In this document: piece by piece, positions 6,774-53,599 of the stretch
Layout: each line of letters opens with the position of its first letter
Numbering within the stretch: position 1 is the stretch's first letter
Notes under the pieces: model-generated
Told to the model about the DNA's origin: nothing
Seen by the model: the letters and a program-made list of their open reading frames with translations, nothing else
The model's database searches: none
Translations under genes and position numbers: made by a program
Assembly: GCA_001244265.2 (NCBI GenBank)
Contig: CDLV01000009.1
Span: 434,001-498,000 of the forward strand
DNA: 64,000 nucleotides
Direction: 5' to 3'
Source: Microbotryum violaceum
Taxonomy: Eukaryota

Positions 6774-9009
6774 TTGTGATGAGTAAAGGTGCCGCTTGGG
6801 CCTCCTCCATGTTGGTCTATGCGTCTGCTGTTGCTCCACCCACATTTCTCTGGCAACGTAGTTGGCGGTGTCGGCTATGCCACTCGTTGCTGATTTATAA
6901 GTCGACATATTTCCCGGCCGATCTCAAGCAAGATACAAAGACTTTCAAGCGAGCTTCGACCTCTTCTTCGGGAAATATGCGTGAGCACAGAGTCCGCGTA
7001 CTGTGGACCGCTCGGACGAGAGCGCGCGGGCCGAACAGCTTCGATCACGTGATCAGCCATTGCAAACCCTCAGGTCAAGTACATCTCCTCTCGATCCAAT
7101 CAACCACATCCTTGTCCAGCGTCTCCCAATGCGACGCTGTTGCAAAATGAGGACCCCCTTGAATGACGAGGAGTTCGCTGTTGTCCGTTCCGATCGCCGA
7201 GCAAGTTCGTTCGTGATAATTGCGCTCGAATGGGTACTGCAGTCATAGCTAAATATGAGCCCGTAGTAAAATGAATGACGAAATGAAAGGACTAGCTGAC
7301 TCACAGCATTGTCATCCGTCCCGTGCACGACTAGCACGTTCGTCTTGCCGAGCGGACTGGGTCGACTCGCGAGCCGACCGATCAAGCCTCTTCGATGGTT
7401 CAGACAGCGATGGTTCATCTGTGCGAGAGATCGGGCCTAGTACCACGAAAAGGTCCTAAAATGGATCGCACATTCATCTACTGACTTTCATCGTCTCCCC
7501 GGCTTGCTTCCCTTCCAAGATGCCATCGTCATTCACGAGCGTTGCCTTGAGCGCATCCGCGATAACTTTTGTCCCCTGTTCCCTTGCCACAGCAAACAAA
7601 GGCTCCTCTGACTCGGTATATCCAGCTTTGCCCATGTTCGTGGCAAACTCGTCGATTAGTTGTGCGACTTGTTCGGGGGAAGTCGTGGCTCGGCATTTGG
7701 TCGCAAAGTCTTCGCCGTCCTGGGTATAGTCGACGACGAAGTCTGTGACGCCCATACCACAGAATCCAATATAAGGCTGAATATATGGCAACATGTCCAA
7801 ACGGGTTTTAGATGCGCACCTTCGCTCTCTTCCTCGGCACAGGTCCCAACGATGACGACGCCGACAATTCTTCGCTCCTTTCCCTCCTTGGTCACTCGTT
7901 CATGATCCCTCATGCCCAACCTCAAACCCGTATGAGCTCCCCCCATCGAATCACCATACGAAACGGCCTTCACCTCTCTTCCAAGCTCCTTTGATACATC
8001 GTCAAGAATATGCAAGATTGCTTCGGCCGCGAGATCAAAGGACCAGGCTGACCCCGCTGGAGAAGTGCGCGATTGGGCGAACCCGGGGGCGTCGACGGCG
8101 ATCTTGTGATAAGGTGCCAAAAGAGGGTTCTTGATTTGGGGTTGCCAGTATTCTCGGGAGGCGTTGAAGTCTGTTCCGTCGCAGAGAGGCAGAAGGGGAG
8201 ACGTGTCAGTGCCCGGGGGTTACGTTCCAGATCGGGCCCGCGGATTAGCTGATGGGTCGCTTTGCAGAACAAGAAGTATGGTATGCACCCCGGGATATAC
8301 CCTGAGTCATATTTCAAGTAGAAATGGACTCACGATGCAGCAGAACTAAGAAAGGCAGCTCCTTGCCTCCCTCCGACTTGACCGTAGGTTCATGGTGGGT
8401 GTACGAGATCGTATAGTCCTTGGTAGAAGACGTGAACGTTGGGTCTCGCTTGCTGATATCAAAGCTGACTGTTACGCTCTTCTCTGTCATGATGTCTCGT
8501 GAGCGCGGATATAAATTGAGAGAGCGAAAGGGAGAGCATCGATCGTGCCGATCGCTCGAACCGAAGAGCGCCGGCACTGCATACAATCGGCTTCACTGCA
8601 GCTTTCTTCCGTTCATAAAAATCATGCGCCAGACGGAAGAGGGGACGGTTTTGTTACTTTGAAGTCCCACTATTACGACTGCCAGTGCACAGACTCTATG
8701 ACTGCCTTTCTGTGTTCGTGTGCTATGATTGGAACGCAGTCGATTTTGCATCGATGGGTCCGTGCGGCGACGCGTTACGTCATGAGCCCGAGTGAGCAGT
8801 GCAGCGCGTCGCGTGGAGCCCAAGGTCCAACATTCTCAATTCTCAAGGTCGTTTCTATTTAACCACCCGGTACGAGTGCCAGTAATATGAAGGTATACTG
8901 AAGACACTGACAAAAATGTGAATCATACAGACACCAGGTGCGAGAAGAAATAATCAGTTCGGTTCAGGGGGCACTATGGCGCTTGGGCCCTTGTTTTCAG
9001 GGTTACGGT
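6774..9009. repeat. Left half of duplicated host cassette, copy 1 (hydrolase + part of shared promoter)
   Basis: Near-identical to 34210-36441 and 45670-47902. Identity starts at TTGTGATGAGTAAAGG and stops after CAGGGTTACGGT. Confidence 0.95.
7075..8490 (-). CDS. Alpha/beta-hydrolase, copy 1 (apparently intact)
   Basis: LVLLH, AVDAPGFAQS, nucleophile elbow GDSMGG, VVHGTDD (acid) and GGPHF (His), joined across GT-AG introns. TGA at 7075-7077. Confidence 0.85.
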
Positions 9010-9169
9010 CCGTCTTAGCCCAGAAAGCAAGATTGGGAACTCACTCTACAGTATCTGCTTTTGCGAGTCAGTCGCAAGTATTGACCCTCCAAGCGTGGGG
9101 TAGGTATGCTTTTATTTATAGACTTCAAAAGAACGCTCCTTGAATCAATTCGAAACTCTCCTGCATGCT

Positions 9170-11443
9170 AGCTGGGCCGGGGGGACATTCAAAGATTCAA
9201 AGGACCGAATTCGAAATGGCCGTGCAGGGTCTGCACCATCAAGGGCATCACAGGGCCCAAAGGCCGGAAGAACTATTACCCACTGAAAAACGTCACTGGA
9301 GTACCACCCGATCCCGATCGACCAGATCTTCAGGTCGATGATCTGCCGATGCGATCGGAAGAGTCCATCCGCAAAATTGCCTGGGAAGTCACTACGGGCC
9401 GCGCACGACTGTTCAAGGACCCGGACATGGGAATGAACGGCCTCGCCCGCATAGCTTTCATTCCTGGATTCACAAAGACGGAGCGTTGGACTTCATGCAT
9501 GCAGCGTTCGAGAACATTGCCAAGCGACTTGTCAACCTATGGCACCCCTCAAAAGAAGATACCGCTGCTCGAGTCGCGCAGGGCTTGGAACCTGATCCCT
9601 GGGTCATTGGCGATAAAGTCTGGGAGGAAATCGGGCTCGAGATGAAGGCTTGTGCGGCAACGGCCCCGTACCAATTTTTTCGAGCCATGCCCAATATTGC
9701 TCGGACCCAATCTCAGATGGCCGCCGAGGACTGGTCGAACTGGATCTTGTTCGTTGGCCCTAGCGTTCTCTATGGTCGTCTCCCGGCCATTTACTTCGAG
9801 CACTTCAAACATCTTTCAAGTTGGGTCAGCGCGTGCATGGCGCTGGAGATCCAGAAAGCCGATGTCCTGTCCGGAGGCAAGCTCCGGGGCGAGATCAACG
9901 AGTGGTACCTGGAAAATTTGAAAGGTGAGCAGGCGGAGCAGATTTCTATGCCACCGAACCAGTCGAGCCCTTTCTGAGCTGCTCAAGGTCTTATATGACA
10001 GGCTTTACTACAACGGACGGCCGGCTCATCTGAAGATATTTCCGTATTCCTCTCATGCCGTCCTGCACATTGCGGATTTTATTTTGTGGCATGGTCCACC
10101 ATGTTCGACTTGGTGCTTCGTGATCGAGCGATACAATCAACACGTCAAGAGAACAATCAACACGTCAAGAGACAATCAACACGTCAAGAGAAACACGTCA
10201 AGAGACTGACTTCTACCAGGAAATTACCCTACTCCGCTATCATGCGTGGTAAGTGACCTCTCCCGCTGGTTGAGCAGATGCGAACTCGCCGAGGCTGATG
10301 AATTCAATCTTTCTCACAAATGGACGTGCGGTAGGCATCATGGTGGATAACGCAATGAAGTCAATCGCTGCGTGGTACCCGGCAGTGTTCTATCCCGCTT
10401 CCAAGAGGAAAGTACCCTCTGGGAACAAATTGGAGCAACCTGGCCCCCAGGTCGAACAGTCACTTGGTGACGGGCAGGCTGAGCCTGAGGCGGTGGAAGG
10501 CTGCGAGCTTATCGGCGCCAAAACAATTCAGGAAGAGAAACTGAGTGTGCATGTCAAGAAGCTTCTGATCACCTACATCAATTGTACATATGCCGTTGAG
10601 CCCAACGAAAGGACGGTATGTACCAAATTCTTGTCTGAAGGGCTTCTCATCAGGTGCTTTCATAATGGCATTCTCATTGATATGATGGCCCATGTCACAG
10701 CTCGCCGCGGCCAGAAAACTGCTACCAAAGGAGTTGACGATTGCCTACACTGCCATATTGAATGGAAGCCGGATCGTCGGATCTAGCCAACCGTCGCCCC
10801 GGGGCCCATCTCGCCGAGAGGCTTTCACGGTGCGCACTACCAGGCGCGATTGCTCGTGGATATCGGTTAGTGGATCGTCAGGATCATCAGGAAACTCGTT
10901 GCGATTGCTGAGCTGTGTGCCCCGCTTGCCCCGGGTAGTATACTCTCTTTGTGGACGAAGATGCGCGTCGCAGTCGCAATCGCAGTCGGCCATTCGTTGG
11001 GGTCGAGCACAAATTTTACGGAGAAGCACTGGAGTTTTATCGGTTCAATCTAGCGCACCCGGTGCATGGAGAAACAGAGGTAAATATGCTTCCCCGTCTC
11101 GCCCGAAACATGACTTTGGCTGACCAGCGTGCCCGACTCCAAACTTACAATTCTTGGGAATCAGCACACCGTCGTTGTGGTGCGGCAGGCGGTCGGCTTG
11201 GTCGCGGTCGGACCGGAAAATGCCCAGCACTTCCACAACATTTACCGCTACAAAAAACAAGGTCCACTGGAGGCAGTGCCTGTTCAACAGGTGCTGACAG
11301 TCGCTGGCCGACTGCACCGAAAGCTAGATTCTAGTTTCACGACCGGTGCGGACGTCGGGCCCGCCAACGTTTGGTACTTCTGCTTTGATCGACCGATTGG
11401 CATCGCACAAGCCGTGTTTGACGACGGTGATGATAGCATGTGA
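9170..11443 (+). pseudogene. CACTA/EnSpm-type (Transposase_21/tnp2, DUF4218-like) transposase remnant, 5'-truncated and frameshifted
   Basis: GDIQRFKGPNSKWPCRVCTIKG; DFMHAAFENIAKRLVNLW; AEDWSNWILFVGPSVLYGRLPAIYFEHF; HAVLHIADFILWHGPPCSTWCFVIERYN. Possible right terminus ...CTTTGTGTG at 11819. Confidence 0.75.
10133..10205 (+). repeat. Tandem repeat, ~19-20-bp unit ACAATCAACACGTCAAGAG(A), about 3.7 copies
   Basis: Read directly; it disrupts the transposase frame just after the ERYN motif. Confidence 0.9.
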
Positions 11444-12690
11444 CATCATTGCGGTTGTCTTTTAACAATGTAATATAATGAAGACGTTTGAATCACCCAA
11501 AGGTGTACATAATCTCAACACTGGCAGACACGATGGTTTTATGACAATTGTGAGGGAAAATGATCGCCGTCTTGGGTAAAAAACCCTCTGGTCTCATAAA
11601 ACCTCGATCGGACCTCGCGGGGGTTTTACGACAGCGGCGGGGAAAACGGCGGCGCGTCTTAAAACCCGACATGCGCGGCTGGGTTTTGTGGCGCTCGTGA
11701 TTGGCACAACGGGGTAAAACTGCCCCAATCGCAGGAAATACCCTCCCGCGCGTGCCTCAAGTGGCGGGTACCTTGCGAAGTTCCCAAAATGTCGCAATTG
11801 CACCTCCTTTCTTTGTGTGATTTGTGTGATTAGTTGATGAAGCACCCTCTGGCAGCAAAAACGTCTGAAGGCCTCAGCTCCGAGTCCTAAATTGGCCCGT
11901 CGGCAAGCCGTGCCGCCTCACCGGCAAAAACATGGGCATTGAGCCGAATACGATTTGAATCAACGCGCCGCCGAAGGGGGCGACCGGTCCCTGAACCTCT
12001 GACGGAGTAGTAACACCGACTGACAGGGTCAGCTAGTTTTACTAAGAACCTGCCATGGATCGGGTATGCAGCACCGAGTTCCCGAGTCAGCCTGTTCGCT
12101 CATATGAATGGGGCGTGTAAATGGGCCAAACGTTAATGAACATTGCAGACAACGAGATCGAGCCAGAGCCGGGGTGTAACTGCATCAGTTAAGATCACTC
12201 GACATCGCCCATGTTACAGTCCGCGTCTGGACGAGTTTGTGTTCGCATGTGGTCGTCAGCGCCGGGGACCCACATCGCGCGATCACCGAAGTCAGCTGTA
12301 GCAGTGGTCTCAGTTGACGTTGAGAGATCGGGACTACCGGGAGCGACTTGGGCGCGAGACAGCCTGGCTAGGCGTGGTGAATGTGTCCACTGCTGAGGGA
12401 CATGATGGGAATCAAATGGCATGGAGTGTCAGTATTCCCCCACAGATCTTTCACAGTGGGAAAAGCGTTGCAACCCCATAGCAAGAAAGGCCAAAAAGAG
12501 GCGACCGTTTAGACCGGTGTCGCACCTGGCCGGGAGGTTCGCCATGGTTCGGCACGCGCGCGCGAAGTTTTTCACGGTGTGGGACCTCGAGGAGCGTCCA
12601 TGACGGTGTGGGCGCTTGAGGTGAGGCTGGTTACCGTGCATTCACTCGGTCCAAAGGTGGCAACTTGGTGCTCAGGTTTTTCGGATTGTG

Positions 12691-12809
12691 CCGAGGTTCT
12701 CCAACTTCAGTATGAGGTTCTCCAACTTCGGCGTCAGGTTCTACAACCTCGGTGGTAGGTTCGGTAACTTCGGCGTCAACTTCTCCAACTCCTTGCCGAG
12801 GTTGCCAAT
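12691..12809 (+). repeat. Degenerate ~21-bp subterminal tandem array (AGGTTCTCCAACTTCGGCGTC-like)
   Basis: Periodic AGGTTC..CAAC(T/C)TC units just inside the left TIR. Confidence 0.8.
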
Positions 12810-14430
12810 GGTTCAAGATCAGGGGTCGGATTGCGCATGGTTCGCTTCGTTTACCAAGGGTGAAAGACCGGTCGAGAAAAATTGCACTCCTGAAACCTCC
12901 TTGATGCGTTGGACACGTTCATAGTACACTGTACTGTTGAATCTTTTTCAACTGGCCGTAGCATAGGATTTCTGGGTATGCAAAACTGTGTAGTAAAACC
13001 GAAGAACTACTGAGATACAGTGGGCAGTAGGCACACAGAAGGGACGTCCGTTCGTCTTTGACTGATAAGCATCTGTGTACAGGATCGAGTGGCTCTAAGC
13101 TCTTCATAGGGTCCACGGCACAGTACAGTGCTGGGGCGGCTGAGATAATGTTTCTTCTGTTGGCGATGGACCACTCTCGGATGTCAGAAAATCGAGCTGT
13201 TTTGCTGCTAGATTCGGAAGAACGTGTGGTGGCACCCTGCATTCAAATGAGCGCGTTCCCTTGGGAGTCAACTGCAGTACGCAAGAGCCAAACCCAGCAG
13301 GTGTCGACTCGAAAATTGACATCGCGCCAGCGCTGCGCCCGCGACAGCTCGCGACTGACTGGTTTCGGCAGCATCAAATCCTGGCAATCCTGAGGCGAAG
13401 GGAACAGATCTTTGTAAAGCATCTTCTCCGTCCACCTGGTCCACCTGGCCTCCGGCTTCAGAGTCCATTCCTTGCGCCAGAGCAGCTCGACGGCGTGCGG
13501 GAGAAGTATGACTCGGTCATCGAGCCGCCCCTTGGGTCCGAACATCGCGACCATCCTCCGAGTCTCCCAGTAAGCCGCAGCCGATTCGCCATCCTCAAGG
13601 CGCCAGCTGAGGTGTCATTTGATATATTTTTGTGCCTGTGGTATCTGCGCGGTTGCGCGTATGTTAGTCATTAGTCATTTTGGTATTGGAGTTTGCTCTG
13701 TTTAAGTTGGGAGCGCGCGGGGCTTCCTTCCCGCGCGGCTGTCTACTCTCTCCTCTGTCGGAAAGCTATCTTCCGCGCTCGCACCGTTCCTGCGACAGTG
13801 ACGACCTCGATCAAAGACCGGTCAGTATGCCCGATAACGATTTATTGCGCAGGACGGCCATGATGGTTAACCCGTGCTTGAGTTAATTCAAAAGAAATAC
13901 CTAAGGCCGTTGCATTGTACTTTGATGATTTGTGATTAGTTGTGAAATGCTAATCTTACCTCCTAATAGCTGGTTCTCTGCGAAATGCATTGCAGTGCAG
14001 CCCTGAAAAATATGCGTAAACTTCCTAAATCTGATACAAAGGATAAGGACTACCTAAGGAAAAAATAGATCGCTTTCTGGGTCCTTGTTGTTTCTCACTA
14101 ACGCAAAGAGATCCACCTTATTCACTAGCCAACCCAAAGAGCTCGCCCTTATTCTCTCAAAAGACAATTTTACTGCTCGCTCGTTAGCGTATTGCCCGAA
14201 ATCTAATAAAAATATCAACTGAAAGAGCATGTAGTTTACCTGGTGTTAAATCGTAAAGTGTACGATCGAGAAGCTGTAAGCTATCGAGGTTTAATTGGAT
14301 TTTATAATGAGTCTGAAGAAATTAATTCCGAGGGTTTATGTTATGTTTACCATTACATGGCTAATACTTTTGGGAGCTCGCCTTAGCCAATAGGACATGT
14401 TGGAGGTTAATGATACCCCCCAACATCTTC

Positions 14431-14484
14431 ATTCATGCTGCTACTCTAGTAACTGCCGGAGTTTACTTACTACTAAGATCATCC
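14431..14484 (+). other. Nuclear mitochondrial insertion (nad5 fragment) within an AT-rich tract ~13930-14660
   Basis: ATTCATGCTGCTACTCTAGTAACTGCCGGAGTTTACTTACTACTAAGATCATCC translates to IHAATLVTAGVYLLLRSS, the conserved ND5 motif, with A/T-ending codons. Confidence 0.8.
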
Positions 14485-15836
14485 TACTAATTTGCCAAGA
14501 GAGTTGAAAGAATTGGATTTAGATAACACAGTAGTCATATCACTACCTAACGCCTGAGATTTACTCTGTAACTCTACATTGGTGTCAAAATCCTTTTCAG
14601 GTTTTTACCTTCGAATAAAAGTTAAGCGCTTTTTTATTTTTTATTTATTTGTCTTTTTTAACCGGAGCTTTATCATTGATTGGACCGACTCTCCTCTCCT
14701 TTCCAAATAACCAGTGTAGAAAGGGTTCGTCTTATGAGTCGTCTCGACAGGAAGCAAATCCGTGCGTTCGGCCTGGAAGTCACGCTCGCGGCGACCGATA
14801 AGTTGCCAAGTGGCCCAACAGATCCGAGGTGTCCGCCGCTCATCGAAAGCCTTCTGGCGTCGAATTTCCAGCGTGGTATTCGAAAAAACGGGATCGCATC
14901 TTGTACCACTCGAAAGTACGGTATGACGATCGGATCCGAGCTCGACTGGTCACCGTGCGCGTCGGTGATTTTGTCGTTCTTGGTGCTCCACCGGATTCAA
15001 GGGACCGTGTCGTATTCGCCCAAGTCGAAGCTATAGTTAGCGTCGGACGAGACGAGTAGGTTCACTTTGCTCCTCGTCACCTGGATGGACGAGAGTCAGA
15101 CGCGTAAATTAGGCTTGGCCAGGTTAGAGTGCTCAAGCCTTTCCGTGCTGGGACTTCAGAGCGACCGAGAGTCATCGGGCTCGATGCCATCTCGAGCGAG
15201 CAAGGTGTGCCGATTCTGAGAGATTACACAGAGCTGGGACTGCACATCATAATCCCTTACCAAGTTTCGACAATCTGATGGAGTGTTCATGTGATCTAGG
15301 GTCATTTGCAATGACGTCGCATGAAAATTGCTCCAGTCTTCAAAGCGCTCTTCCTGCCGTCGGCCTTGTCGGAGGCACGGACACTTCGATGAAATCGATG
15401 CAGCAACCTTGCTCCAACCTCGTCAATGCATTTTTTTCTCTCGATGCCACCTGTTGATGAGAGAGGGACTTCGCTTGGGAGCGTGATTGTGAAGCTTTGG
15501 GGTAGTTCATCTGTCTGCGGAAATTCGACTGCGGGGACTATAGATAGGCACCCTGTCGTCGGTCCGCTCTTCTCCTTTGGCCAATCACTCGCCGCTCGCT
15601 CGAGTTAGACCTCTCACTCGGACTTGCGCGCGACACACGTTCGTTGATCACCAGGTCACCGAAGTCTGCATGTAGCACACAAGTCCCATTTTGAAGAACG
15701 TTGCGTCGTCGTCACCACCGCCAACTCGCTGCCTATTCCGTCGCACCAACTTGTTCCAGCTCGGCTGTGCGCACGAGGTCATACCTACCGGAAGCCGCGT
15801 GACATACCATTCGCAAGGCTAAAGGCTCTAAGATTT

Positions 15837-15890
15837 GTCGTCGTCGTCGTCGTCGTCATCATCATCGTTGTCATCGTCGTCATCGTCATC
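15837..15890. repeat. (GTC/ATC)n trinucleotide repeat
   Basis: Read directly; it would encode poly-Asp on the minus strand. Confidence 0.85.
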
Positions 15891-17177
15891 TCGCCGACGA
15901 TTACGTCGCACCACCTTGCTCTCTACGTCGGCATTTCGATCCACGTTTTGCGTACATTCGTTTCAAGCCTACAGTATTTGATCACTCGTTGCAAATCAGT
16001 CGTCGTCTTCTTCCGATTCTCACCCGCCATTCGAACACCTGTGGACGCTCGTTCAAGCCTGCTTGAGGCCATGACTCGATTCGCTCCTACCCATGTGCTG
16101 CAGTGCAAACGCCCACGTCCCCATGCCCACAAACATATCTTCGCACGAACCATCACCTCCTTGTAAGTGCTTCACCGCTCTGGCTACTCCTCGTATGATC
16201 CTGGCGATACCAGCTTGTGCGACCACGTCGAGACTCGCTGTGGTGATGGCTCTGGGGGAGCTGCACTTGCGCTGACGCTTTCGCTCGTGTCTTAGTTCCT
16301 CAACAGCGATGTTACAGGTGAAGAACTTTCTGTTTCGAGCCCATCTACGACAGTCCCGGCCTTTATTCGTGCAGGTTGGGAGGGCCGAGCGATCAAGCTC
16401 CTAGCCAGAAGCATGACGTCATCGCCTGGCTAAGCTTGATCAACAATCACCTTGATCTCATGTAGATCATAAGCCTTCTCGCCCATGCCATCGCCAACAA
16501 AGGTGAGTACATCCCATCAAAATACCGGTGCGCTTTTACGTTCCTTCCGAGCCCTGGGATCGTGCTTGTTGCGTCGCACCATCACCTGCTTACCGTGACG
16601 GTCTTCTCAATCGATGACACCGTGTGAGTGAGCTTGTGGTGGCATACTGCCCTGCTGATTTGGCTTGCTTCACAGCACTGGATTGGCTTGGGATGGTGGA
16701 ACGTTCAAGTCCGATTCATATAATCGACCTCGCTGTCGGAGCTTCACACCCCCTCTCGTCACGCTCAAGCTCCTTGCTTCGAAACACCCGAAGGACTGGC
16801 CCTCCTCGATTTCTGTCCTTGTTCAAGATAATATACTGACGCACTATCATGACCCAACCCAACCCATTCCTGTCCCAAGCCCAGTCCAGACCTAGTCAAA
16901 GATTTGGCCTTGCACAGCTGTTTCTGATGATGATCAAAGTCGGTGAGTCCACTCAAGTTCATGGCACTATCGCTCGTGGTAGAGTTGTGGGCTGGATTTG
17001 CTAGTTCCTGTGCAAGACGATCGATGCCTCTCTCGATTTGAAGAAGACCGTGCGAGTCCCACTGCTGCGGTTTGAGAGCCTGAGCCGAAGTGAAAACTTC
17101 CGCCGCAAAGTCGTGAACTAGTGAATAAAGTTTAGCACTACGAAATCAAGTTCTAGACCTTCGCTCAAAAGTCCCTC

Positions 17178-17345
17178 GCCCAAGCCCCAAGTCCCAAACT
17201 TTATCTTTCAAGTCCTAAAACCTTGCCCCAAGTGTCAAACCTCGAGTCAAAGTTCCGAACCTTGAGGCAAAGTTTTCAATCTCAGACCCAAGTTGAGAAC
17301 CTCGCGCCCCAAGTTGAAACTTGAGCCCCAAGTTTGAAACTTCGC
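17178..17345 (+). repeat. Degenerate ~20-21-bp subterminal tandem array (CCCAAGTT.(G)AAAC.T..)
   Basis: Periodic CCCAAGT...AAC(C/T)T units just inside the right TIR. Confidence 0.75.
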
Positions 17346-17612
17346 CTCCCGAGTTCAGGACTACGAACACGGTTCCGGAACCTTGGGCTCAAATTATACC
17401 CGGTTCCCAACTCTGGTACCTGGTGCCACATGGTGTAGGGGTTGCCAACTTCGGGCGGTGGTGCGGAACCGTACGGCACCGGTCTAAAAGGTCGCCTCGT
17501 TTTGGCCTTTCTTGCTATGCCACGATTAGATGACTTTTTGTCGTTGGCCTAAACGGTATCTGCTTGGTCGAGAAACTTGTCCTTGATGCGCCCAAGGCTG
17601 TGAGATACCTCG

Positions 17613-19868
17613 TCATCGCAACGGTGAGTGTAACTCTGCCGGGTTAACGGCGACGAAGAGGGTGTACATACCGAACGCGTTGACGTATCCGCCGATCTCA
17701 TTCCTCATGTCGAGCATCTGCGCAGTTGAGCCGTGAATTTTGTCTCCGGCACTTTGCAATTCCGCCAGAATACGGTTGATATGATTCTCTGCTTCTGTTG
17801 TTGCCTTGTACTTTTTCGTGTCCTTGGATTTTATGATCATTTCGGACACAACATCCATGTCGATTTCGAGCAGTGCTGCTGCGATTCGGGCCACCTTCTC
17901 TTTGGGGACCCGAAAAGCGAGTTGGCGAAACACTTCTCGTCGGCGGACCATGTTCGAGACGATGAATGGGAAAGACGGGTCGCATCAAAATCGCTGTCGT
18001 ATAGATTGAGCAAATGTTTGACTTGCTCGTCCAGAGAAACCTTGAGGTCGCGCTCGACACAGAAACCGACGAGACCAAATGAATTGAGGTGTGGCCACAG
18101 CTTTGAGAGCACGTGCTCGTTCGAAGGTTCCCATAACGGGGCGTCGCCTGTCGGAATAACCTAGTTGGCTTGTCCTGGTTGAGATAACGGAGAGCGTCCT
18201 CAAAGAGCAGCCATGAGTGAATCGGTTCGTCGGTAGGGGGTGGCGACAGATGGACGTGTTCGATTACTGGTTCATCAGAGTCGGTATGCGTTGTTGCGTA
18301 GCCGTCAAAGAGCGATGAGGTTGCTTCCACTGTCTCTGCGGTTACCACATTCGCCAAAACAACGTCGGGCACGAGACCGTCTCCATCCGCGATTTGTCGA
18401 TCCGATACTTGGGGAGCAACCCAGACGGAAGCCAAAGTCGAAGTGGAAGCTGAAACCGCCGTAGAAGCTGGAGAGGTCGGGTTGAGCGCACCCGGGCCGG
18501 AACCAGTGCGTCGAACGAGCAGTGCAGTCCCATCAAAGGAAACGGCAGAGTGCGCCGAATTCTTGCTTTCGTTGATCAACCACCTGAGCATCTTTTGGAT
18601 CCGACTCTGCTTCACGATCATGGGCCGACACTTGTCCAGCTCCGCAAGGTTGGGGCTCCCTCCGCAGAATGCAAACACTGTCAGCGAGCTCCTCGACTGA
18701 CATGGGCAGTACATCGGTGAACGAAGCGGTGTATTGGCTGAAGAGGAGGGTGTTTCCGCGCGTGAGGTCTTGTTGAGCTTTCGGGATATCCAAAACGAGT
18801 TAGCTTGTACACGATCTTGTAGGCTCTGGCGCGCGCAGTGACGAGGTGCTCAAGCTGACTCGCGTTGGAGAAGCAATCTCGGACATCAGCGGAGACGTGA
18901 TCCAGTGCGGGATAAAATCCGTTGCTCAACGACCGAGGGGGCTTAGCCGGTGGCCCTGTGGTAGGGAACAACCGTTTGAAGCAGTCTGGACAGAGTGAGC
19001 ACTGAAGCGTGTTGTTCGTGGGCGAGTACGCGATCTGATCGATTAAATCGCTCTGTCAACGGAGACATCGGGGATGGATGAGTGCGCCCCGCCAAGCTGA
19101 AAAATCGTAAGTCGGAGGTCCGTCCATAGTGTAGAGTTGGTCAATCCCCTCCAAATCCCTGATTCCTCACGCTTGATGTCATCTTCGGGCACCGATCGTA
19201 TGTTATGCCCGAAGACTCTCTCGGAACACACCAGGCAGCAGAAGAGACGGGAACGAGCGTCGGTGAAGTAAATTATTCCATTCAGAACGGTTCTCGGTCT
19301 TCAACTGATCGGATGCTGGCGCAAAATGCGATGTCACTTTACAGGGATCTTCTTGTGCGGGTTCGGGATGCAGCGGTGGACGTCTGTGCAGCGTTACTTT
19401 AGAGTCAGTCGCTGAGACGGTCTCGCGATTCCTCTGGACTTCCTCGTTCAGTCAGGCTCGAAGCACGTCAACAGGTTTTGATGCGTATGCTCTGTGGTCG
19501 GAGAAGCAATGACGACGTGGCGGAGTCACGGGACTCGCAGCTTGTTGCCTTCTGAAAACATACCCATTTGAACAAGCATTACAGTTGGGATCGCACGACC
19601 AAAGGAGCGCTTGTAGGGATAGCTCTTTCGCAAGCGGGTTCCTCCTGTAGTGTCCTTCCACGTGGTGCGCCCGAAAAAGCTCCTTCAGGAGATCCATGCT
19701 GAAGTTGATGCTGCTGCACACGAGCTGCCCAAGACTGCATTTGACAACCACATCATCGAGTGCTGACACTGGACTGTTGCGTAAGAGCGGACCGGAATGC
19801 ACATATTGTGCTTGATCGGTGCGGCGGGAGGATCGGCTGTCGCTAGTGGTGGACGCGAGGCTTAACAC
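17613..19868 (-). pseudogene. Helitron2/Helentron-type Rep protein N-terminal remnant (DUF6570-like region + start of Rep)
   Basis: CPDC...SLSNGFYP...LEHLVTARAR, QQDLTRGNTLLFSQ, then IHGSTAQMLDMRNEIGGYVNAFGMYTLFVAVNPAELHSP, which matches the GS...R.EI...G...LF...NPAD.HSP pattern. Multiple frameshifts; truncated before the HUH motif and helicase. Confidence 0.7.
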
Positions 19869-20227
19869 GTTGTCGAGATTCGAGAGTTGTAGTCAATGAT
19901 GCGGAGGTGTACAAGATCAGAAAGCAGTGACATGACGGCGGTTCTGCGATAGCCTGCCTTAAGAGATGCGAGGAAACTCGGTCCAAGTTAGTGAAGTAAA
20001 AGTGCACCACCTATAGAGGTGGCAGCAGTAGGACAATACGCAGCAGTGTCAGAACCGATAGTTGAGGAACAAGTGATTAAAGAAAAGCTAAACAAGGGAG
20101 TCCGCATTGCGAAGGCATAGGCCCACGCGCAAGAATATAATCCACTCAGACACTAAGTTTAATCCACTGCCTTAAAACCAATCGAGCCCTGGGCGCGCGC
20201 CGCGCCTCGTTACCGATGGCCTACCAC

Positions 20228-22942: not shown

Positions 22943-23701
22943 AGTCGACGAATCTCAAATCCATAGAGATGCGATACAGAACGTGATCTGCCCCCCGGGA
23001 TTGTTGATTACGAGGAGTTGCCGTCATTCGAGTAAGGATGCACGATTCGCAGTCGACGACGGTTGTGTCAGTCAAGCGAAGGCCGGTGACCGCTCCCGCA
23101 CGATGCAGGGCGATGAGCGAAATTTGCGAAATATGGTTGAAAAACAAGTGCCAAGAATAGAGCGAAGCGCTAGTCGATGATCGAGTGACCGATTTCGGTG
23201 CTGGCAACAATGTTATTGCCAATATGCACGTTGATAGTCGAACCGTCATCTCCGAACGATAGTTTAGCTCCGGCGATACGGAGTGCCTTGAAAGAGACTA
23301 GACTTTGTCCAGCGCCGGGGAGATGATAAACCTTCTGAATGTTGAGCGTATGATTCTTGTTCGTGCGAACGGTAATGGAACCATAGCCTTTGCAGAGAAC
23401 CGGGGAACCATTTGCTACACGGACCATGACCGGGTCGAGAGTGAAGTTTCGCAAAAGTGAACGATCACCGACGAAGTGACGATGAGCGCCAGTATCGCCG
23501 ATCCACGTGTTCCGGAGCGGGGCGGCATCCGAAGGTTCACCGATGGAGTAAATGGTATAGTTTGTTGACATTTCAGTCACCGCGTTTGCATCGACGGCCG
23601 AACTACCTCGGCGCACTCAGCACACAGTTTGGGCGTCATCAGCCTCCCCGAGTCTCCGCGCCAGAGCCCACTACTAGCGCAGACAAGCGCAAGCTAGCGC
23701 A

Positions 23702-23966
23702 AGGACCCCCGAAAGCCCAACCTGAGGCGCGTAGGTAAAGAGTGGACAAATTTTTGGCCCTAGAAAAGCCAAAATCGCGATTTTTGGAGATGTTGTAGAG
23801 CATCTGAAGCAATTCTAGAGCTGTTGTTGGACGAGCGTAGATGGACTGGACATTTGAAGGCCATTTTTGGGCGAATACACCGAAAAAGGGTGGACAAATG
23901 AGGTGCAAAATCCGGGATTTTGGCCGATTTTACCTACGCGCCTCAGGCTGGGCTTTCATGGGTCCT
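23702..23966. mobile_element. 265-bp MITE with ~38-bp TIRs and 8-bp TSD, inserted in copia gag
   Basis: TIR AGGACCCCCGAAAGCCCAACCTGAGGCGCGTAGGTAAA vs reverse complement AGGACCCATGAAAGCCCAGCCTGAGGCGCGTAGGTAAA. TSD CTAGCGCA at 23694-23701 and 23967-23974. Confidence 0.92.
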
Positions 23967-29076: not shown

Positions 29077-29103
29077 AGGACCCCCGAAAGCCCAGCGGGA
29101 GGC

Positions 29104-29135
<32 letters not shown>

Positions 29136-39247: not shown

Positions 39248-39901
39248 ACGAGGATGAACGATGACGAACGATGTTTGGACGATTTGTCGTTGGTCCCCAT
39301 ATTATGGCACAGACCTTGGACACAATGGACGCTGTCGTCCTCACTTTTCCCTCTCGGTCAGGTGCCGATGAGTAAACCCCTTTAACCCCCACTCAGCTGT
39401 CTTTCTGGCCTCCCTCTTTCTATTTGTTAGACGAAGCTTATTCCCCTCCCCCCCCCCCCCCCCTCTCCCCTTCGCTACGCACCCAATCGCCACCTGAACA
39501 CTTGTGCGATTTGGCATGCTCTTCCCCTCCCCAATTCGTCGTTTTCCTCTTGTTCGCATTTTTCATTCGCCCCCCGTCTTTACCCTTCCTCTTTACCTCT
39601 CTTGGCCCTGATTAGACACATCGCCTCTTTCTTGTTCCTAGTATCATATGACATACCGCATTTTTCTACATGACAAATCGTTCTCGGTTCAGCGAGCCAT
39701 GTTTTGAAAAAAGGGATGAACACCAAAGCTCCAAAGCGAGCAGAATCCAGAAGAAATCGACAATAGAATGTACACCGTTCGTCTTCAACGCCTCTCCCGT
39801 CTCCTAAGCCCATCTCATCATCTCTTTTCACATCCCCACACCCCCAGGAAAAGGTGCAAGAGACGTTCAAAGAAGCCTCTTCCTTCCTGCTCCCTTCTCG
39901 T

Positions 39902-40565: not shown

Positions 40566-40598
<33 letters not shown>

Positions 40599-45669: not shown

Positions 45670-45968
45670 TTGTGATGAGTAAAGGTGCCGCTTGGGCCTC
45701 CTCCATGTTGGTCTATGCGCCTGCTGTTGCTCCACCCACATTTCTCTGGCAACGTAGTTGGCGGTGTCGGCTATGCCACTCGTTGCTGATTCTTGTCGAC
45801 ATATTTCCCGGCCGATCTCAAGCAAGATACAAAGACTTTCAAGCGAGCTTCGACCTCTTCTTCGGGAAATATGCGTGAGCACAGAGTCCGCGTACTGTGG
45901 ACCGCTCGGACGAGAGCGCGCGGGCCGAACAGCTTCGATCACGTGATCAGCCATTGCAAACCCTCAGG

Positions 45969-47383
45969 TCAAGTACATCTCCTCTCGATCCAATCAACCA
46001 CATCCTTGTCCAGCGTCTCCCAATGCGACGCTGTTGCAAAATGAGGACCCCCTTGAATGACGAGGAGTTCGCTGTTGTCCGTTCCGATCGCCGAGCAAGT
46101 TCGTTCGTGATAATTGCGCTCGAATGGGTACTGCAGTCATAGCTAAATATGAGCCCGTAGTAAAATGAATGACGAAATGAAAGGACTAGCTGACTCACAG
46201 CATTGTCATCCGTCCCGTGCACGACTAGCACGTTCGTCTTGCCGAGCGGACTGGGTCGACTCGCGAGCCGACCGATCAAGCCTCTTCGATGGTTCAGACA
46301 GCGATGGTTCATCTGTGCGAGAGATCGGGCCTAGTACCACGAAAAGGTCCTAAAATGGATCGCACATTCATCTACTGACTTTCATCGTCTCCCCGGCTTG
46401 CTTCCCTTCCAAGATGCCATCGTCATTCACGAGCGTTGCCTTGAGCGCATCCGCGATAACTTTTGTCCCCTGTTCCCTTGCCACAGCAAACAAAGGCTCC
46501 TCTGACTCGGTATATCCAGCTTTGCCCATGTTCGTGGCAAACTCGTCGATTAGTTGTGCGACTTGTTCGGGGGAAGTCGTGGCTCGGCATTTGGTCGCAA
46601 AGTCTTCGCCGTCCTGGGTATAGTCGACGACGAAGTCTGTGACGCCCATACCACAGAATCCAATATAAGGCTGAATATATGGCAACATGTCCAAACGGGT
46701 TTTAGATGCGCACCTTCGCTCTCTTCCTCGGCACAGGTCCCAACGATGACGACGCCGACAATTCTTCGCTCCTTTCCCTCCTTGGTCACTCGTTCATGAT
46801 CCCTCATGCCCAACCTCAAACCCGTATGAGCTCCCCCATCGAATCACCATACGAAACGGCCTTCACCTCTCTTCCAAGCTCCTTTGATACATCGTCAAGA
46901 ATATGCAAGATTGCTTCGGCCGCGAGATCAAAGGACCAGGCTGACCCCGCTGGAGAAGTGCGCGATTGGGCGAACCCGGGGGCGTCGACGGCGATCTTGT
47001 GATAAGGTGCCAAAAGAGGGTTCTTGATTTGGGGTTGCCAGTATTCTCGGGAGGCGTTGAAGTCTGTTCCGTCGCAGAGAGGCAGAAGGGGAGACGTGTC
47101 AGTGCCCGGGGGTTACGTTCCAGATCGGGCCCGCGGATTAGCTGATGGGTCGCTTTGCAGAACAAGAAGTATGGTATGCACCCCGGGATATACCCTGAGT
47201 CATATTTCAAGTAGAAATGGACTCACGATGCAGCAGAACTAAGAAAGGCAGCTCCTTGCCTCCCTCCGACTTGACCGTAGGTTCATGGTGGGTGTACGAG
47301 ATCGTATAGTCCTTGGTAGAAGACGTGAACGTTGGGTCTCGCTTGCTGATATCAAAGCTGACTGTTACGCTCTTCTCTGTCAT
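45969..47383 (-). pseudogene. Alpha/beta-hydrolase copy 3 (one 1-bp homopolymer deletion as read; may be sequencing error)
   Basis: C5 vs C6 at 46833-46837, the same change as in copy 2. Confidence 0.7.
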
Positions 47384-48106
47384 GATGTCTCGTGAGCGCG
47401 GATATAAATTGAGAGAGCGAAAGGGAGAGCATCGATCGTGCCGATCGCTCGAACCGAAGAGCGCCGGCACTGCATACAATCGGCTTCACTGCAGCTTTCT
47501 TCCGTTCATAAAAATCATGCGCCAGACGGAAGAGGGGACGGTTTTGTTACTTTGAAGTCCCACTATTACGACTGCCAGTGCACAGACTCTATGACTGCCT
47601 TTCTGTGTTCGTGTGCTATGATTGGAACGCAGTCGATTTTGCATCGATGGGTCCGTGCGGCGACGCGTTACGTCATGAGCCCGAGTGAGCAGTGCAGCGC
47701 GTCGCGTGGAGCCCAAGGTCCAACATTCTCAATTCTCAAGGTCGTTTCTATTTAACCACCCGGTACGAGTGCCAGTAATATGAAGGTATACTGAAGACAC
47801 TGACAAAAATGTGAATCATACAGACACCAGGTGCGAGAAGAAATAATCAGTTCGGTTCAGGGGGCACTATGGCGCTTGGGCCCTTGTTTTCAGGGTTACG
47901 GTGGGGAAATCGAAGCGCCTGCATCTCGCGCCGAATGCGCGAGCCGGGCTCCGAGGGCTTGTTTCACTCCCATCATACTGACCCTCAGAGGCTTACACAC
48001 TCCTTTACACGTGCGACACGAGCCCTTGTTGACGAGCACCGCCCATTTGTTTGTTTGTATCGGTCATCTCACATTCCCCCCAGCTTGCCTTCGCCTCCAC
48101 TCCAAT

Positions 48107-50707
48107 ATGCGAACCCCCTCTACGACGCGGGTGGCGACGACCTTCACGGCCGCGTTGCTCGCGACGCTCAGCTCCGCGGCGCCGGCGGACAACACGATCG
48201 AGATCGTTGGCAATTCGGGTGTCAGGTCAGTTCAACTTCATTGTCTGGTTGCTCTTTGACTCTTCTGGAACGTGTTTGGCTGGGACGACTTGGCTGTATC
48301 GCACCACACCACGGAACGAGGCCGTGCGAACTAAGACGCCAAGCACGTCCGGCCGGAGTGAATCGCTTTCGACGGATGGATGCGCACGCGCGTTTTCGCG
48401 CTATCGTCGTCACCCAACCTCGGCCTATGGAGCGCGGCCCAACAATGGGCGTGCGGCATTCTCGGCGCGAGGGACGTGCGAGCGTGCATGTGTACACCGT
48501 GTCCTTTTTGTGTTGTCACGTGACGGCGAGCATTCACTCTCATGGACAGCTCTTCGCCTTGTACCTTGTGTGCGAACTGCGGTCGCCTCCGAGGCGTTGG
48601 CATTCCAAATCGGACTCGGCAGATGCGATGCGATGCACCGCGCGGGCCCGCGCAGCGTCTACTTCCGACCGCCGATTGCCAACACCGCCGCCGGCTCGGC
48701 TTTTTCCAATTGATCGCCCCTAGCTAGCCTGGACCTCATGCTGGGGAGGACGGACGGTCGCTGAACATCCCATTTTCACCCCTCTTTTATGATCACAACA
48801 GTGCACAGCAACTTTTCCTCGGCCAGTCCAACAAGGTTTACATCGTCGACAAGACGGAACGCAACCCGGTCAACACCACCAGCGGCCACCCAGCATGGGC
48901 GACCGAGTACGACTACACCGACAACACATTCCGCACCATGGACATAAAAACCAACTCGTTCTGCGCCGGTGGTAACGTGCTCGGCAACGGCACCTGGATC
49001 AACATTGGTGGCAATCAGCCCGTCGGTCCCGGTGGGCTCAACGCCAACGCTGTCCCTGACCCTTACGTCAACGGCGATGGTGGGAAGGCGACACGGTGAG
49101 TGGACCTACTCTTCGACTGTTTCTTCGAACAAGACAAGTGGGTGCTTAACACGTACCCTTGCCCCTCGATACTTATCATCAAAGGCGACTGAATGTGTGC
49201 ACCGATAAAAAGTGTGACTGGATCGACGATGGGTCCAACTACATGACGACGCGCCGATGGTATCCGACACTAGAAACGCTCGAAGATGGATCCATGATCG
49301 TCATCGGAGGCTGCGACTGGGGAGGATACGTCAACGACAAGTCGCAGAACAACCCGACGTACGAGTACTACCCGTCAAAGGGCGGTCCGATCGGCCTCAA
49401 CATCCTCACCACGACCTTGCCGGCCAACCTATTCCCGCTGACGTGGCTGCTCCCTTCGGGTAACATCTTCATCAATGCCAACTTGGGTACCGAGATCTTT
49501 GACTACAAGAACAACGTCGAGTACGCTGTCTCCGATATGCCTCACGCCGTCCGCACCTACCCCGGATCGGCTGCCACCGGCATGCTGCCGCTTACCCCGG
49601 CCAACAACTGGACCGCGACCATCCTTTTCTGTGGTGGCACAAACTTGCAGCCCGACCAATGGGTCACCTCTTGGAACATCGCCGCTTACCCCGCCGACAG
49701 CACGTGCGTGTCCATGACCCCGATGTCTCGACCAACTGGGTCGATGAGGATCCGTTGCCCGAGGGCCGAGTGATGGGTAACCTCATCAGTCTTCCCGACG
49801 GTCGCTTTGTCGTGATCAACGGTATCGGCAAGGGTACAGCCGGTTACGGAAACACGTCGTGGGCCATCGGTCAATCTTTCGGTGACGATCCCGTTCACTC
49901 CATTCGCTACTACGACCCCTACGCCGCCTCGGGCAAGCGCTTCTCGAAGATCGTCGCCAGCTCGACCGTTGACCGCATGTACCACTCCTCAGCGACTCTC
50001 CTCCCCGACGGATCGCTCCTGTCATCGGGATCCAACCCCAATGCCGACTACGTCGCCCCGGCACCCCTGGCTACACCTATCCTACCGAGTACCGCGTCGA
50101 GCGATTCTATCCCGACTACTTCACCGCGAACCGGCCGCAGCCGACCGGTCTCCCGACGACGCTCGGCTACGGTGGCTCGTACTTCAACGTTACTCTGTCC
50201 CAGACCGATGTCGGCAACGTCTCGAAGCTCGACAACACTAAGGTCGTGCTGATCCGACCTGGCTTTTCGACCCATGCGATGAATATGGGCCAACGTTTCG
50301 TCCAGCTCGACTCGACCTTCAGCGCCAACTCGGATGGCTCGGCCGTGCTGCACGTCTCCCCCGTCCCTCCCAACCCCGCGATCCTCGTCCCCGGCCCTTG
50401 CCTCATTTTTGTCGTCGTTGACGGCATCCCCTCGATTGGCCAGTGGGTTACCATCGGTAACGGCCAACTCGGAGCCCAGACCATCAGCCCCGTGCAGCGT
50501 CTTCCCGCTTCGACCGGTGGTGATGGCAAGCCATGGAACAGTGGCAACAGCACGTCGACGAGCACGACCTCTGCTGCCGGTTCCGCTGGCACGGGATCTT
50601 CGAGTTCCAACTCCAACAACAGTGCTGGCAGTGGGGCCATGTCGATCCTCGCACCTGTCTTTACTGTGCTCGGCGCCGTGATGGCCGCCTCGACTTTGTT
50701 GATCTAG
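48107..50707 (+). CDS. Copper radical oxidase / glyoxal oxidase (AA5_1), copy 3 (two frameshifts as read); continues into unique downstream DNA
   Basis: Same motifs. C4 vs C5 at 49718-49721 and 50056-50059. Homology to the other copies ends at 51359. Confidence 0.88.
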
Positions 50708-53599
50708 ACGAGGATGAACGATGACGAACGATGTTTGGACGATTTGTCGTTGGTCCCCATATTATGGCACAGACCTTGGACACAATGGACGCTGTCGTCC
50801 TCACTTTTCCCTCTCGGTCAGGTGCCGATGAGTAAACCCCTTTAAACCCCACTCAGCTGTCTTTCTGGCCTCCCTCTTTCTATTTGTTAGACGAAGCTTA
50901 TTCCCCTCCCCCCCCCCCTCTCCCCTTCGCTACGCACCCAATCGCCACCTGAACACTTGTGCGATTTGGCATGCTCTTCCCCTCCCCAATTCGTCGTTTT
51001 CCTCTTGTTCGCATTTTTCATTCGCCCCCCCGTCTTTACCCTTCCTCTTTACCTCTCTTGGCCCTGATTAGACACATCGCCTCTTTCTTGTTCCTAGTAT
51101 CATATGACATACCGCATTTTTCTACATGACAAATCGTTCTCGGTTCAGCGAGCCATGTTTTGAAAAAAGGGATGAATACCAAAGCTCCAAAGCGAGCAGA
51201 ATCCAGAAGAAATCGACAATAGAATGTACACCGTTCGTCTTCAACGCCTCTCCCGTCTCCTAAGCCCATCTCATCATCTCTTTTCACATCCCCACACCCC
51301 CAGGAAAAGGTGCAAGAGACGTTCAAAGAAGCCTCTTCCTTCCCTGTTCCCTTCTCGTTTGAAAAAAAAAGAAGTGAACATCAACCCTTGCTCGGTATTC
51401 CGAACCAACCTTCACCCTCGTAAAGATTTGCAAGAAACAAACACCTCGCAGTACGAGTCGAGTTGATGAAGGGGGTTTGGAAAGGTGAGTGTAGAGTTTC
51501 GAAGAAAGGAGGGGCATGAACGACGAGAGGACGATGGGAAAATGAACGTCCGTAGACGTGCGGTGAGGAAGGGGTTGCCCCGGTTAGGAGGAGAGATCGA
51601 AGTGAGGTGTGAAGGTTTGGTTTGGGCTTGTAATGACTCAGAACCCAGCAATGAATCCCCTGATAGAGGGATCGAGGATCGTGCATCCGAGCATCCCATC
51701 AGAACGAAACAGAAACGCCGTACAAGACCCAAAGCATCGAAAGAGACGATGACGATGGGCTCGAAATGCAGTAATTGGTTTCGTTGGGTTTCTGACTTGA
51801 AAGGGAGGAATGGTCACCTCTGCTGGGAGCCTTAAGACAAGCCGGTCGGTAAGGTCGGATCGGAGCGGAGCGAGGAGGGCCGAGTAAAGTGGGAGGAAAA
51901 GCAGCAGGAGTGCCCCGAAAGTCGTTGTAGAATGATCGCTGACAAGGCGGGACTGAAGGAGTAGATGGAAAGGGCAGTGATCGGGCGGCAGTGATGGGCG
52001 AGAGGGGTTTGGGAGTCGTGGGCCTGCGAAGGGTGGAGCAGCGACGGTTTTCCTTCCCCCCCTGAACGCAGCGCCTCGTCCTAGCAAGACGGTTCATACT
52101 GTGTCCTAAGTTATAGTGATCCCGAAGTAGAAACCAGTGGTCTATCGCTTTCGGCTAGTGTGAAAGTCAAACGTGATAGCGGTGGAGTGGGGTGTGGCAG
52201 AAACAGAGACAAGGAGAGCGGGGAAGAACGGACGACCGGTGTGAAGCACGCTCGGGTCGCTTCTTCAAGTACGGAAAATCAACGCTCGGCGGTGAAGTAT
52301 TATTGGGCAAAGCTTGCTCAGCTCAGTCGTCGGATGCGGCGTGGAAGAAAACTTCAGCGCCCGTGCGTTCGCAGTAAAGCCCTTGGATAGTAAAGAGCAA
52401 AAAGGAAAGCTGTGCAACAGATCCGGGTGCGATGCAGCCCTAACCGGCAAAACGTCGGATAACGTCACGCTCCAAGTGAAACTCAATACGACTCGGGTGA
52501 CCGAACACAGATACGGACCATGGACGACCAGGGACCAGGGTTGCCCTCCTTCCCTTCTTGTGATGGTAAGCTGGACAGGATAGTCGAGACCTAACTCTCC
52601 AACATCATTAGGTCCCACAAAAGGATCATCGTCGTCCGACTTTCATCAATCGCCCGTGCCTCCGAAAGAGAGACACGTCTTCACGAGCGCCGGCGCCAGC
52701 AGCTGCGAACTACGTCGTCTCTTCGGGTGGAGTACGTCGCGTCGCGGGCGCCGTTCGCCTCGGCTTTGGTGCTGATCGTCGTCGCGACTCGCGTAGTCTT
52801 GGAACGAGCAATTTTCAGGGAGCGCCGAGCAGGCCTGGCACTTGGGACAAGTATTACACCTCGAGCATCTCGGATTCGTTGGATCTTACCTTCCGCTCAT
52901 ACTTCGTCTGAGGGATCACGTAACGCCATCGTGAGTGCGACTACTTAGTACCCTACTCAGATGGGGCTTGAAGAGACTGACTCGGCAATAAAGCCAGGAG
53001 AAATCTATCAATAAAAGCTCCCGAGCCATCGTGCGACTTTCAAAACCCTTTCGGTCAAGCACAACATCTTCGCGCGCACACCGCATTCGGTACCGATAGA
53101 ACAAGACCAGATCCCATCATGGTCCGGAGAAGACAAAGCGCCCCCTCTCCGCTCCTCCTCCATCCGTCGATCAACAATCTCCTCCGTGACAGGATACCGC
53201 CCTCAACAATCGCCGTCGATCGCATCATGTTCACGATCCCGAGTCGGCCGCCACCTTCGCACGTCGAACCTGTTCGAATCAACAAGTCGAACGTTGGGGG
53301 TATCATTTGTCTCAAGTTGCCGAGTTTGGCGGGACTGTGTAGTAGTCGGGAGAGGGGGTCCGAGTCATCGACGTCGAGTCAGGACAAGTGAGGAAGTATG
53401 TGGGGAGGGGAATCGGTCGAGCTTCCCACATAGAAGCGTCATTCGCGAGCATTATAGCATTTCTGTTTGTTTGCTTTCTCAAAGTAGATCCTTTATTTTT
53501 ATGCATTTGCAACAGCATTCATCTCTGGGGGATCGAAGCCCCCAAAGCCGTTCCCATCTCGTGCCAAAGCTCGGCATCCTCCCGCAAGCTTTCCTCGTC

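Follow-up and report, generated by a model that had tools for sequence, protein, structure and literature searches.

The locus described here lies in a stretch of 64,000 nucleotides from Microbotryum violaceum (GenBank assembly GCA_001244265.2, contig CDLV01000009.1, positions 434,001 to 498,000 of the forward strand; hereafter the window, whose numbering is used throughout). It is a tandem array in which a pair of genes, an alpha/beta hydrolase (A) and a copper radical oxidase (B), is repeated with a composite non-autonomous Helitron (X) between the repeats. An earlier note on this DNA had given the order as A-[16 kb]-B-X-A-B-X-A-B with a period of about 11.46 kb; self-BLAST and alignments of the window bear this out, with a period of 11,460 bp. 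The A copies lie at 6774-9009, 34210-36441 and 45670-47902, the B copies start at 25009, 36469 and 47930 and end at 28437, 39900 and 51357, and X is present twice, at 28438-34209 and 39901-45669, both on the plus strand. In the alignment the copies are 99.7-99.9% identical to one another, and the second X differs from the first by five single-base indels only. The duplicated host segment is 5.69 kb long and holds the two divergent genes. There are n copies of the gene pair and n-1 Helitrons; the outer flanks of the array are native, and neither self-BLAST nor the alignments revealed a copy of the Helitron family at either of them. A search of the 33.2 Mb genome (20 contigs) placed all four near-identical matches to A or B inside the window; the only other matches were two weak hits of 122 bp to paralogues.

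Part A of the first copy (6774..9009) retains its native left flank, with the family target site AAAACT|TTGTG at 6773/6774, and its gene (7075..8490, minus strand) has five exons encoding 346 residues; in part B of the same copy (25009..28437, plus strand) the oxidase begins at an ATG at 25185. The second copy (34210..39900) is formed by A on the minus strand (ATG at 35922), a 27-bp spacer (36442-36468) and B, whose gene (36645..39247, plus strand) has three exons encoding 645 residues. The third copy (45670..51357), with ATG codons at 47383 for A and at 48107 for B, ends at the native right flank. Both genes have an upstream region of about 720 bp in common. The window comes from the anther-smut fungus Microbotryum lychnidis-dioicae, and the gene labels proposed earlier are correct: the spliced product of the first A is identical to MVLG_03776 of this species, an alpha/beta hydrolase of 346 residues, and that of the second B to MVLG_03774 of the same species, a copper radical oxidase of class AA5_1 with 645 residues. 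B carries a glyoxal oxidase N-terminal domain and a GO-like E-set domain, as well as the motifs FC (93-94), RWY (162-164), MYHS (403-406) and THA (501-503), which presumably supply the Cys-Tyr radical and the copper ligands.

Supplement file 10 of PMC4469406 assigns MVLG_03774 to AA5_1, and the supplement of PMC5919739 lists it as up-regulated late in infection (log fold change of 1.18 versus mated cells, false discovery rate 6.6e-4). According to the supplement of PMC4469406, it is a single gene located 16.4 kb from one hydrolase; therefore, expression and selection analyses of MVLG_03774 pooled its copies. The locus thus reveals that an oxidase annotated as a single gene and up-regulated late in infection is multi-copy; the benefit of the extra copies is hypothetical. 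Single-base losses break the reading frame in some of the assembled copies. Reads from four runs (X1, X9, X12 and X13, belonging to three studies) were compared, as contigs, with positions 39840-53000, and the C missing at 46832 and at 49717 is present in all four, and that at 50055 in three of them. Given that the reads fill in the missing bases, the frameshifts compared are assembly errors, and the gene copies are probably intact. Pseudogenisation was rejected for these three positions; a loss of G at 35108 lies outside the comparison.

The duplication itself is confirmed by the same runs. Contig depth is a poor measure of copy number; read in this way, run X1 showed depths of 670, 608 and 234 for A, B and the unique flank (2.87 and 2.60 times the flank, about three copies), and run X9 depths of 13.5, 14.2 and 6.0 (2.24 and 2.35 times, about two copies). 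For run X13, the depth of A was 80 and that of a contig reaching from B into the flank 51.7; with B taken as equal to A, this corresponds to about 1.9 copies. In run X12, one contig extends from A into the flank at a depth of 50.4, which fits one to two copies (the implied flank depth being 50, 43 or 37 for 1, 1.5 or 2 copies). In all four runs a contig stops exactly at the start of A (45670), as expected where A has two different left neighbours. The measurement of depth over A and B that the earlier note had proposed thus gave 2.2-2.9 times the flank in runs X1 and X9, where single-copy depth was not seen, and its idea of an expandable array agrees with a copy number that varies (about three, two and two in runs X1, X9 and X13). 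It is barely credible, then, that the assembly wrote one locus three times. Such an error would fit the fact that the copies differ mostly by homopolymer indels and that crossings of the junctions are absent from the contigs listed; it is contradicted by the depths of runs X1, X9 and X13, by the contig ends at the start of A, by a real single-nucleotide polymorphism at 51177 and by the duplicated gene tags of the sister species described below.

The first X (28438..34209) reads 5'-TTACCCTAACTAG at one end and finishes in a hairpin followed by TTCCCACTGG at the other. Its outer 5' part (28438..29075, plus strand, subfamily S2) is followed by a terminal-inverted-repeat (TIR) element, M, whose right end is missing (29076..31133), and by a young Helitron copy of subfamily S1 on the minus strand (31134..33684), which holds a Rep fragment with a Helitron_like_N match at 31268-31744 and whose two flanks derive from different target sites. 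Next come rearranged termini (33703..34044): a forward 5' piece of about 105 bp, a 3' piece of about 215 bp and then a reversed 5' terminus, the last being inserted in the outer 3' part. This outer 3' part (34045..34209, plus strand) contains the terminator hairpin (34183-34199) and CTGG. Both outer ends carry S2-type characters and show the same divergence, each having 94.6% identity to its nearest fetched copy (on aligned columns for the 5' part). An attempt to trace a hybrid origin of X from the subfamilies of its ends was uninformative, because 5' ends of S2 type occur together with several kinds of 3' end. The inner copy is also a near-perfect mosaic of two mutually inverted family copies on the same contig, about 240 kb away (L001 and L002; L-numbers denote family copies fetched from the genome), suggesting local conversion.

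As had been claimed from the letters of the window, the X/A junction is exactly a Helitron 3' terminus: it reads hairpin plus TTCCCACTGG|TTGTGATGAG, against AAAACT|TTGTGATGAG at the native site, and the hairpin folds with z = -3.78, none of 200 shuffles being equally stable. The B/X junction is likewise the exact 5' terminus of the family; here the boundary had to be moved two bases earlier, so that B ends at 51357, because empty sites show that the 5' end is TT. Both breakpoints of the duplication are therefore exact family termini joined at T target sites.

The family to which X belongs has many members (its two ends gave 245 and 267 candidates) and includes autonomous partners, L039, L040 and L042, of 5.7-5.8 kb, with the same ends as X and a frame of 890-893 residues. 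These full copies encode Rep and Pif1 domains in the same direction (in L039, Helitron_like_N 8e-51, PIF1 2e-40, Pif1_2B 2e-19). Rep motif 2 is of the Helitron type, IEYQKRGLPHAH, in L039-L042 and L047; all eight Rep motif hits read GLPHAH, and none has the RGSPHxH form of HLE2. The RGLPHxH form is given as a Helitron signature in PMC4067079. At the 3' end, hairpin and CTGG are followed by T in 52 of the 61 ends read. Three empty-site comparisons and a head-to-tail junction place TT at the 5' end, where TC would be canonical. The empty sites, CTCTGA|TGTG (75 matches), GAGGACT|TTATG (18 matches) and one in element M, are without target-site duplication (TSD). The base 3' of the insertion is T in 44 of 45 distinct flanks; on the 5' side it is T in 15, A in 10, G in 5 and C in 2 of the 32 parsed, a few of these parses being imperfect. 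No Pfam hit to an HLE2-type endonuclease after the helicase was found in the two long frames of L039, which ends about 115 bp past its last frame, and short subterminal inverted repeats are not evident in its ends, where no search aimed at such repeats was made. The family begins with TT instead of TC, yet it works like an HLE1 Helitron. It resembles Helraiser and other HLE1 elements (PMC4778049, PMC11417382) as these are described, with RGLPHAH in RepHel, a 3' hairpin with CTRR, no TSD, insertion before T and an AT-rich 3' side of the target; it differs from them in the 5' TT, in frequent tandem copies of its 5' prefix and in that T is commoner than A before the insertion.

The target preference was used to ask what kind of site each junction is. 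The profile was built from 44 distinct 3' flanks of other insertions, leaving out one head-to-tail junction and the non-T flanks. Host DNA of 25 kb was scored at its 11,077 T positions. The highest score, at the exact base, goes to the native TTTGAAAA flank that follows B (51358..51377, plus strand), an AT-rich stretch forming the 3' half of the target into which the 5' end of X was joined. The start of A ranks 787 of 11,077, a weak score within the family range, reached or undercut by 11% of family sites and exceeded by 6% of the background. The end of B has no hairpin (z +0.78 and +1.22) and no CTRR, B ending in CTCG. From the top-ranked target and the lack of a hairpin it follows that B/X is an integration junction and not a termination site; furthermore, the strong half of the target is kept only after the last B, which indicates that X was not just an insertion into an older junction. 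The claim that the Helitron created the duplication, as opposed to landing in it, is upheld to this extent by the rank of B/X and by the base-exact position of both ends, and we regard it as highly probable that Helitron ends made the junctions and that the later expansion was passive.

Two other origins of the junctions are weighed by the same data. A circle of X-A-B, terminated at the end of B and re-integrated at the native locus by homology, is a form of the circular route that the earlier note had offered, and Helraiser is reported to form circles and de novo 3' ends (PMC4778049, PMC5876387); this family too joins its ends, as CTGG|TTACCC in L041. Nevertheless, the end of B is a target without the features of a terminator, and its coincidence with the best target of all the positions scored would be left unexplained, so that this origin is very improbable. 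Equally hard to believe is that microhomology first made the duplication and that X landed later in its junction. The native end of B and the native start of A do have TTTG in common; however, the TT start leaves the rebuilt junction one T short of the join, an exact landing on the junction is improbable, and the strong target half lies after the third B, where it would not be needed.

The array appears to have a long history. In M. silenes-dioicae, one contig bears gene tags in the order A (g02652), B (g02665), a model of the Helitron family (g02669), A (g02673) and B (g02674), and M. saponariae and M. intermedium have one adjacent A/B pair each. The comparison of relatives that had been called for thus found the single pair in two outgroups and, in M. 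silenes-dioicae, an order that mirrors A-[long insert]-B-X-A-B, all of it in tag order and proteins and not in DNA. The duplication is apparently old and common to this species, whose split from M. lychnidis-dioicae is taken as 400,000 years (PMC3002987). Residues private to a species occur in all its copies (A18, A258 and B518 here, A42 in the sister), which would mean homogenisation if the duplication is shared; one residue change, B614, is copy-specific. Leucosporidium has orthologues of A and B (P0003 and P0122), both recorded with 115,818 bp as the longest contig, a hint that the two genes may have been linked for long.

The third copy is more recent. The first A differs from the second and third, which are alike, within 125 bp of its start, and the third B differs from the first and second within 190 bp of its end, as well as at one doubtful site 516 bp from the end (50846, which may be an error, since all three covering runs read C). 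The zone at the unit ends that holds the substitutions makes up 11% of the weighted sites, its limit having been chosen post hoc, and the copy differences have read support for B only. The second unit is chimeric, its A end being like copy 3 and its B end like copy 1, and the two X copies show no substitution. Differences confined to the unit ends and X copies free of substitutions are the signature of a single, recent unequal exchange in which two older copies took part and X was a passenger; the step from two to three copies was ordinary unequal crossing-over in A-B.

As to the founding event, ectopic recombination between two insertions remains the leading route, as had been suggested, and we hold a crossover between two separate insertions to be about an even prospect. 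One haplotype would have carried a family copy just after B, and another a copy in the same direction just before A; a crossover inside the two copies would have yielded A-B-X-A-B with native outer flanks. From then on the transposase would not have been needed: X and the promoter of copy 1 would have gathered nested insertions, within each species, gene conversion or repeated unequal exchange would have maintained the likeness of the copies, and one unequal crossover inside A-B would have given the third copy, X being copied passively. Eight elements could be examined for their flanks (a repeat site of known empty state with both ends read), and these match in five (L017, L019, L024, L046 and L058) and are swapped in three (L011, L053 and the inner copy of X); those of L020 match as well, on a degenerate 5' end, and L026 is without a 5' end. 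Direct-repeat flanks anchored at the junctions within 8 kb were found in none of 20 other family copies, with the positive control found and with longer units escaping this search, which argues that such a duplication is not a routine product of transposition; together with the swapped flanks, it favours a crossover of two insertions. Recombination between Helitron copies has also been proposed as a cause of deletions in Fusarium (PMC13342296). The swapped flanks inside X were not adopted as a trace of the founding crossover, given that the inner copy is young and the gene model g02669 is of an older type. Separately, L069 and L070 share direct repeats that are not anchored at junctions.

Against these arguments for a crossover stand two ways in which a single transposition could have made the duplication, and jointly they are a substantial possibility, somewhat short of even. 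In a split integration, a single transposase event with no prior insertion, the 5' end would have been attached at a nick beyond B, and the 3' end, on the sister chromatid, at another nick in front of A. It requires the fewest events and accounts for the native outer flanks, for the equal age of both ends and for the weaker target on the side of A (rank 787); copies with swapped flanks, such as L011 and the inner copy of X, could come from the same reaction, and the reversed-ends transposition of Ac is a cut-and-paste analogue (PMC3744419). However, no report of such a reaction for Helitrons was found in the literature consulted, the A-side site still scores closer to the family target than a random T, and recombination accounts for the flank swaps without a new reaction; on its own, this mechanism is unlikely. 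The same grade is given to a local hop with read-through, in which RepHel would have started at the 5' end of a copy before A and bypassed the terminator, the 5' end being joined, on the homologue or sister, to the strong target that follows B, the A-B tail finished by homologous repair, and any outer copy later lost through a crossover with an empty allele. Only one earlier insertion is required here, terminator bypass is reported for Helraiser (PMC4778049), both ends of X resemble one S2-type element, autonomous family copies with long open frames exist, and the logic is that of the model set out for ToxB-HLE (10.1101/2025.11.13.688278). It requires in turn the loss of the outer copy or an event between homologues; a haplotype with X before the first A was not seen in the four runs, and flanks of this kind occur in none of the 20 other copies. 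We are rather doubtful of the fuller statement that a single transposition joined the Helitron ends to two nicks 5.7 kb apart (or read through, with repair) and seeded an array kept for about 400,000 years in two sister pathogens. If the single-transposition reading is true, RepHel itself made a tandem gene duplication, as a rolling-circle counterpart of alternative transposition in an HLE1-type family with a TT start.

Several observations weigh against the crossover of two insertions and the shared history proposed above. A haplotype with a single insertion was seen in none of the four runs (run X12 being ambiguous), and run X1 may be the source sample. The equally diverged, S2-type ends of X fit one element equally well, so that a hybrid is not demonstrable. 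Autosomes are reported to be mostly homozygous through selfing (PMC5967549), and the heterozygote needed for the crossover would therefore be rare. None of the contig pieces listed (32 of 6,168) crosses B/X or X/A, and the letters of these junctions thus rest on the assembly, in which each is present twice. The sister-species data consist of gene tags and proteins; g02669 is nearest to the family copy L024 (333 of 353 residues, versus 266 for the inner copy of X), and the Helitron family is common in M. silenes-dioicae, which makes an independent origin of its array conceivable.

Neither MVLG_03774, MVLG_03776 nor a tag of the sister species appeared in the main text of any paper found, and the locus is undescribed in the literature searched, with subscription journals and bioRxiv supplements lying outside that search. 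Its architecture has a precedent in the ToxB-HLE preprint on Pyrenophora tritici-repentis, another fungal plant pathogen, which describes an array of unit, junction and unit, with the junction only between copies, in 1, 3 or 5 copies, and proposes, as here, a Helitron and unequal crossing-over. In that case weak features are the grounds for reading the unit itself as the Helitron, and most of the 251-bp junction derives from a retroelement; here, in contrast, the unit is plain host DNA with host sequence at its start, the junction element holds both true termini, the family has autonomous partners, and the test of target sites tells integration and termination apart. The KCS array of Populus trichocarpa (PMC13253262) is also reported to pair tandem genes with Helitrons, to vary in copy number and to have the Helitron as proposed driver; each gene there has its own Helitron and capture is proposed, unlike the n copies, n-1 Helitrons and native outer flanks found here. 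FoHeli1 deletions in Fusarium oxysporum, with loss of AVR1 (PMC13342296), have breakpoints exactly at Helitron copies, homologous recombination being favoured, although they are deletions and not duplications and the family is of the non-canonical HLE2 type. The two rival routes discussed here, transposase and recombination, are represented by two other systems as described: the reversed-ends transposition seen with Ac in maize (PMC3744419), which gives a tandem direct duplication with the transposon at the junction and whose route, by cut-and-paste, is revealed by 8-bp TSDs such as Helitrons do not leave, and the RecA-dependent amplification of Burkholderia thailandensis (PMC9946442), a tandem direct duplication by recombination between bounding insertion-sequence elements, both of which persist. 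Helitrons may make tandem gene duplications themselves or only supply homology for them, and the published evidence consists of association or of weak terminal features. The present locus, natural and unusually clean, belongs to a known class of gene amplification made by transposons and combines true termini at the breakpoints, a known target preference, active-looking partners, copy-number variation and a sister species; therefore, the routes can be separated through single-insertion haplotypes.

The 16 kb that part A and B in copy 1 (9010..25008) had been taken for one element. They are instead a nest of at least five element fragments, matching at least five repeat families, which lies in the shared promoter, replaces the 27-bp spacer without TSD and has no terminal repeats of its own; it leaves the first B with only about 176 bp of the shared promoter. 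The nest comprises a fragment resembling a DNA transposon (9194-11763), a second family of repeats, which has a DUF6570 hit (11952-24892), an element whose inverted ends are 49 bp long (12477-17519), a pol fragment of Copia type (about 19992-23607), a small TIR element (about 23702-23966) and a piece of one more repeat (24889-25007). In runs X1, X9 and X13, though not in run X12, the block is indicated by contigs that end at 47902 or 47930. It also contains an AT-rich stretch at about 13860-14660 (GC of 0.42 in the bin 14001-15000), with no match elsewhere among those listed, and two tandem repeats, one of two 76-bp copies (24600-24750) and one of three copies of 19-20 bp (10133-10205).

Some further features of the Helitron family were observed. 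At L041:3053 (contig C2, about 465550), the 3' end of an autonomous copy is joined head-to-tail to the 5' end of the next. Many 5' ends are preceded by tandem repetitions of their initial 7-13 bases, in up to eight units (L039:1328-1440, L042:8850-8970, L005 and L022), each unit being an exact prefix with a tendency to break off at an internal CTAG; these may reflect abortive cycles of starting and stopping. The units contain CCCTAA, the reverse of the common telomere repeat. A second variant of the 5' terminus, TTACTAC plus an AT-rich run, occurs on the same family body (L003, L013, L049, L053 and L058), and in three other repeats a single base has received insertions of different subfamilies (L019, L046, L024, L053, L058, L017 and L020), which makes these sites target hot spots. 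The RepHel copies L039, L040 and L042 are near-identical on three contigs, and the family could be active even now. Contig C9 has three Pif1 matches of identical score within 54 kb (1669498-1723120) and C13 has inverted pairs (937090-973619), possible further segmental duplications involving Helitrons. To the right of the array, ordinary single-copy genes (SGT1-like, Nop14 and F-box/LRR) occupy 54236-63946.

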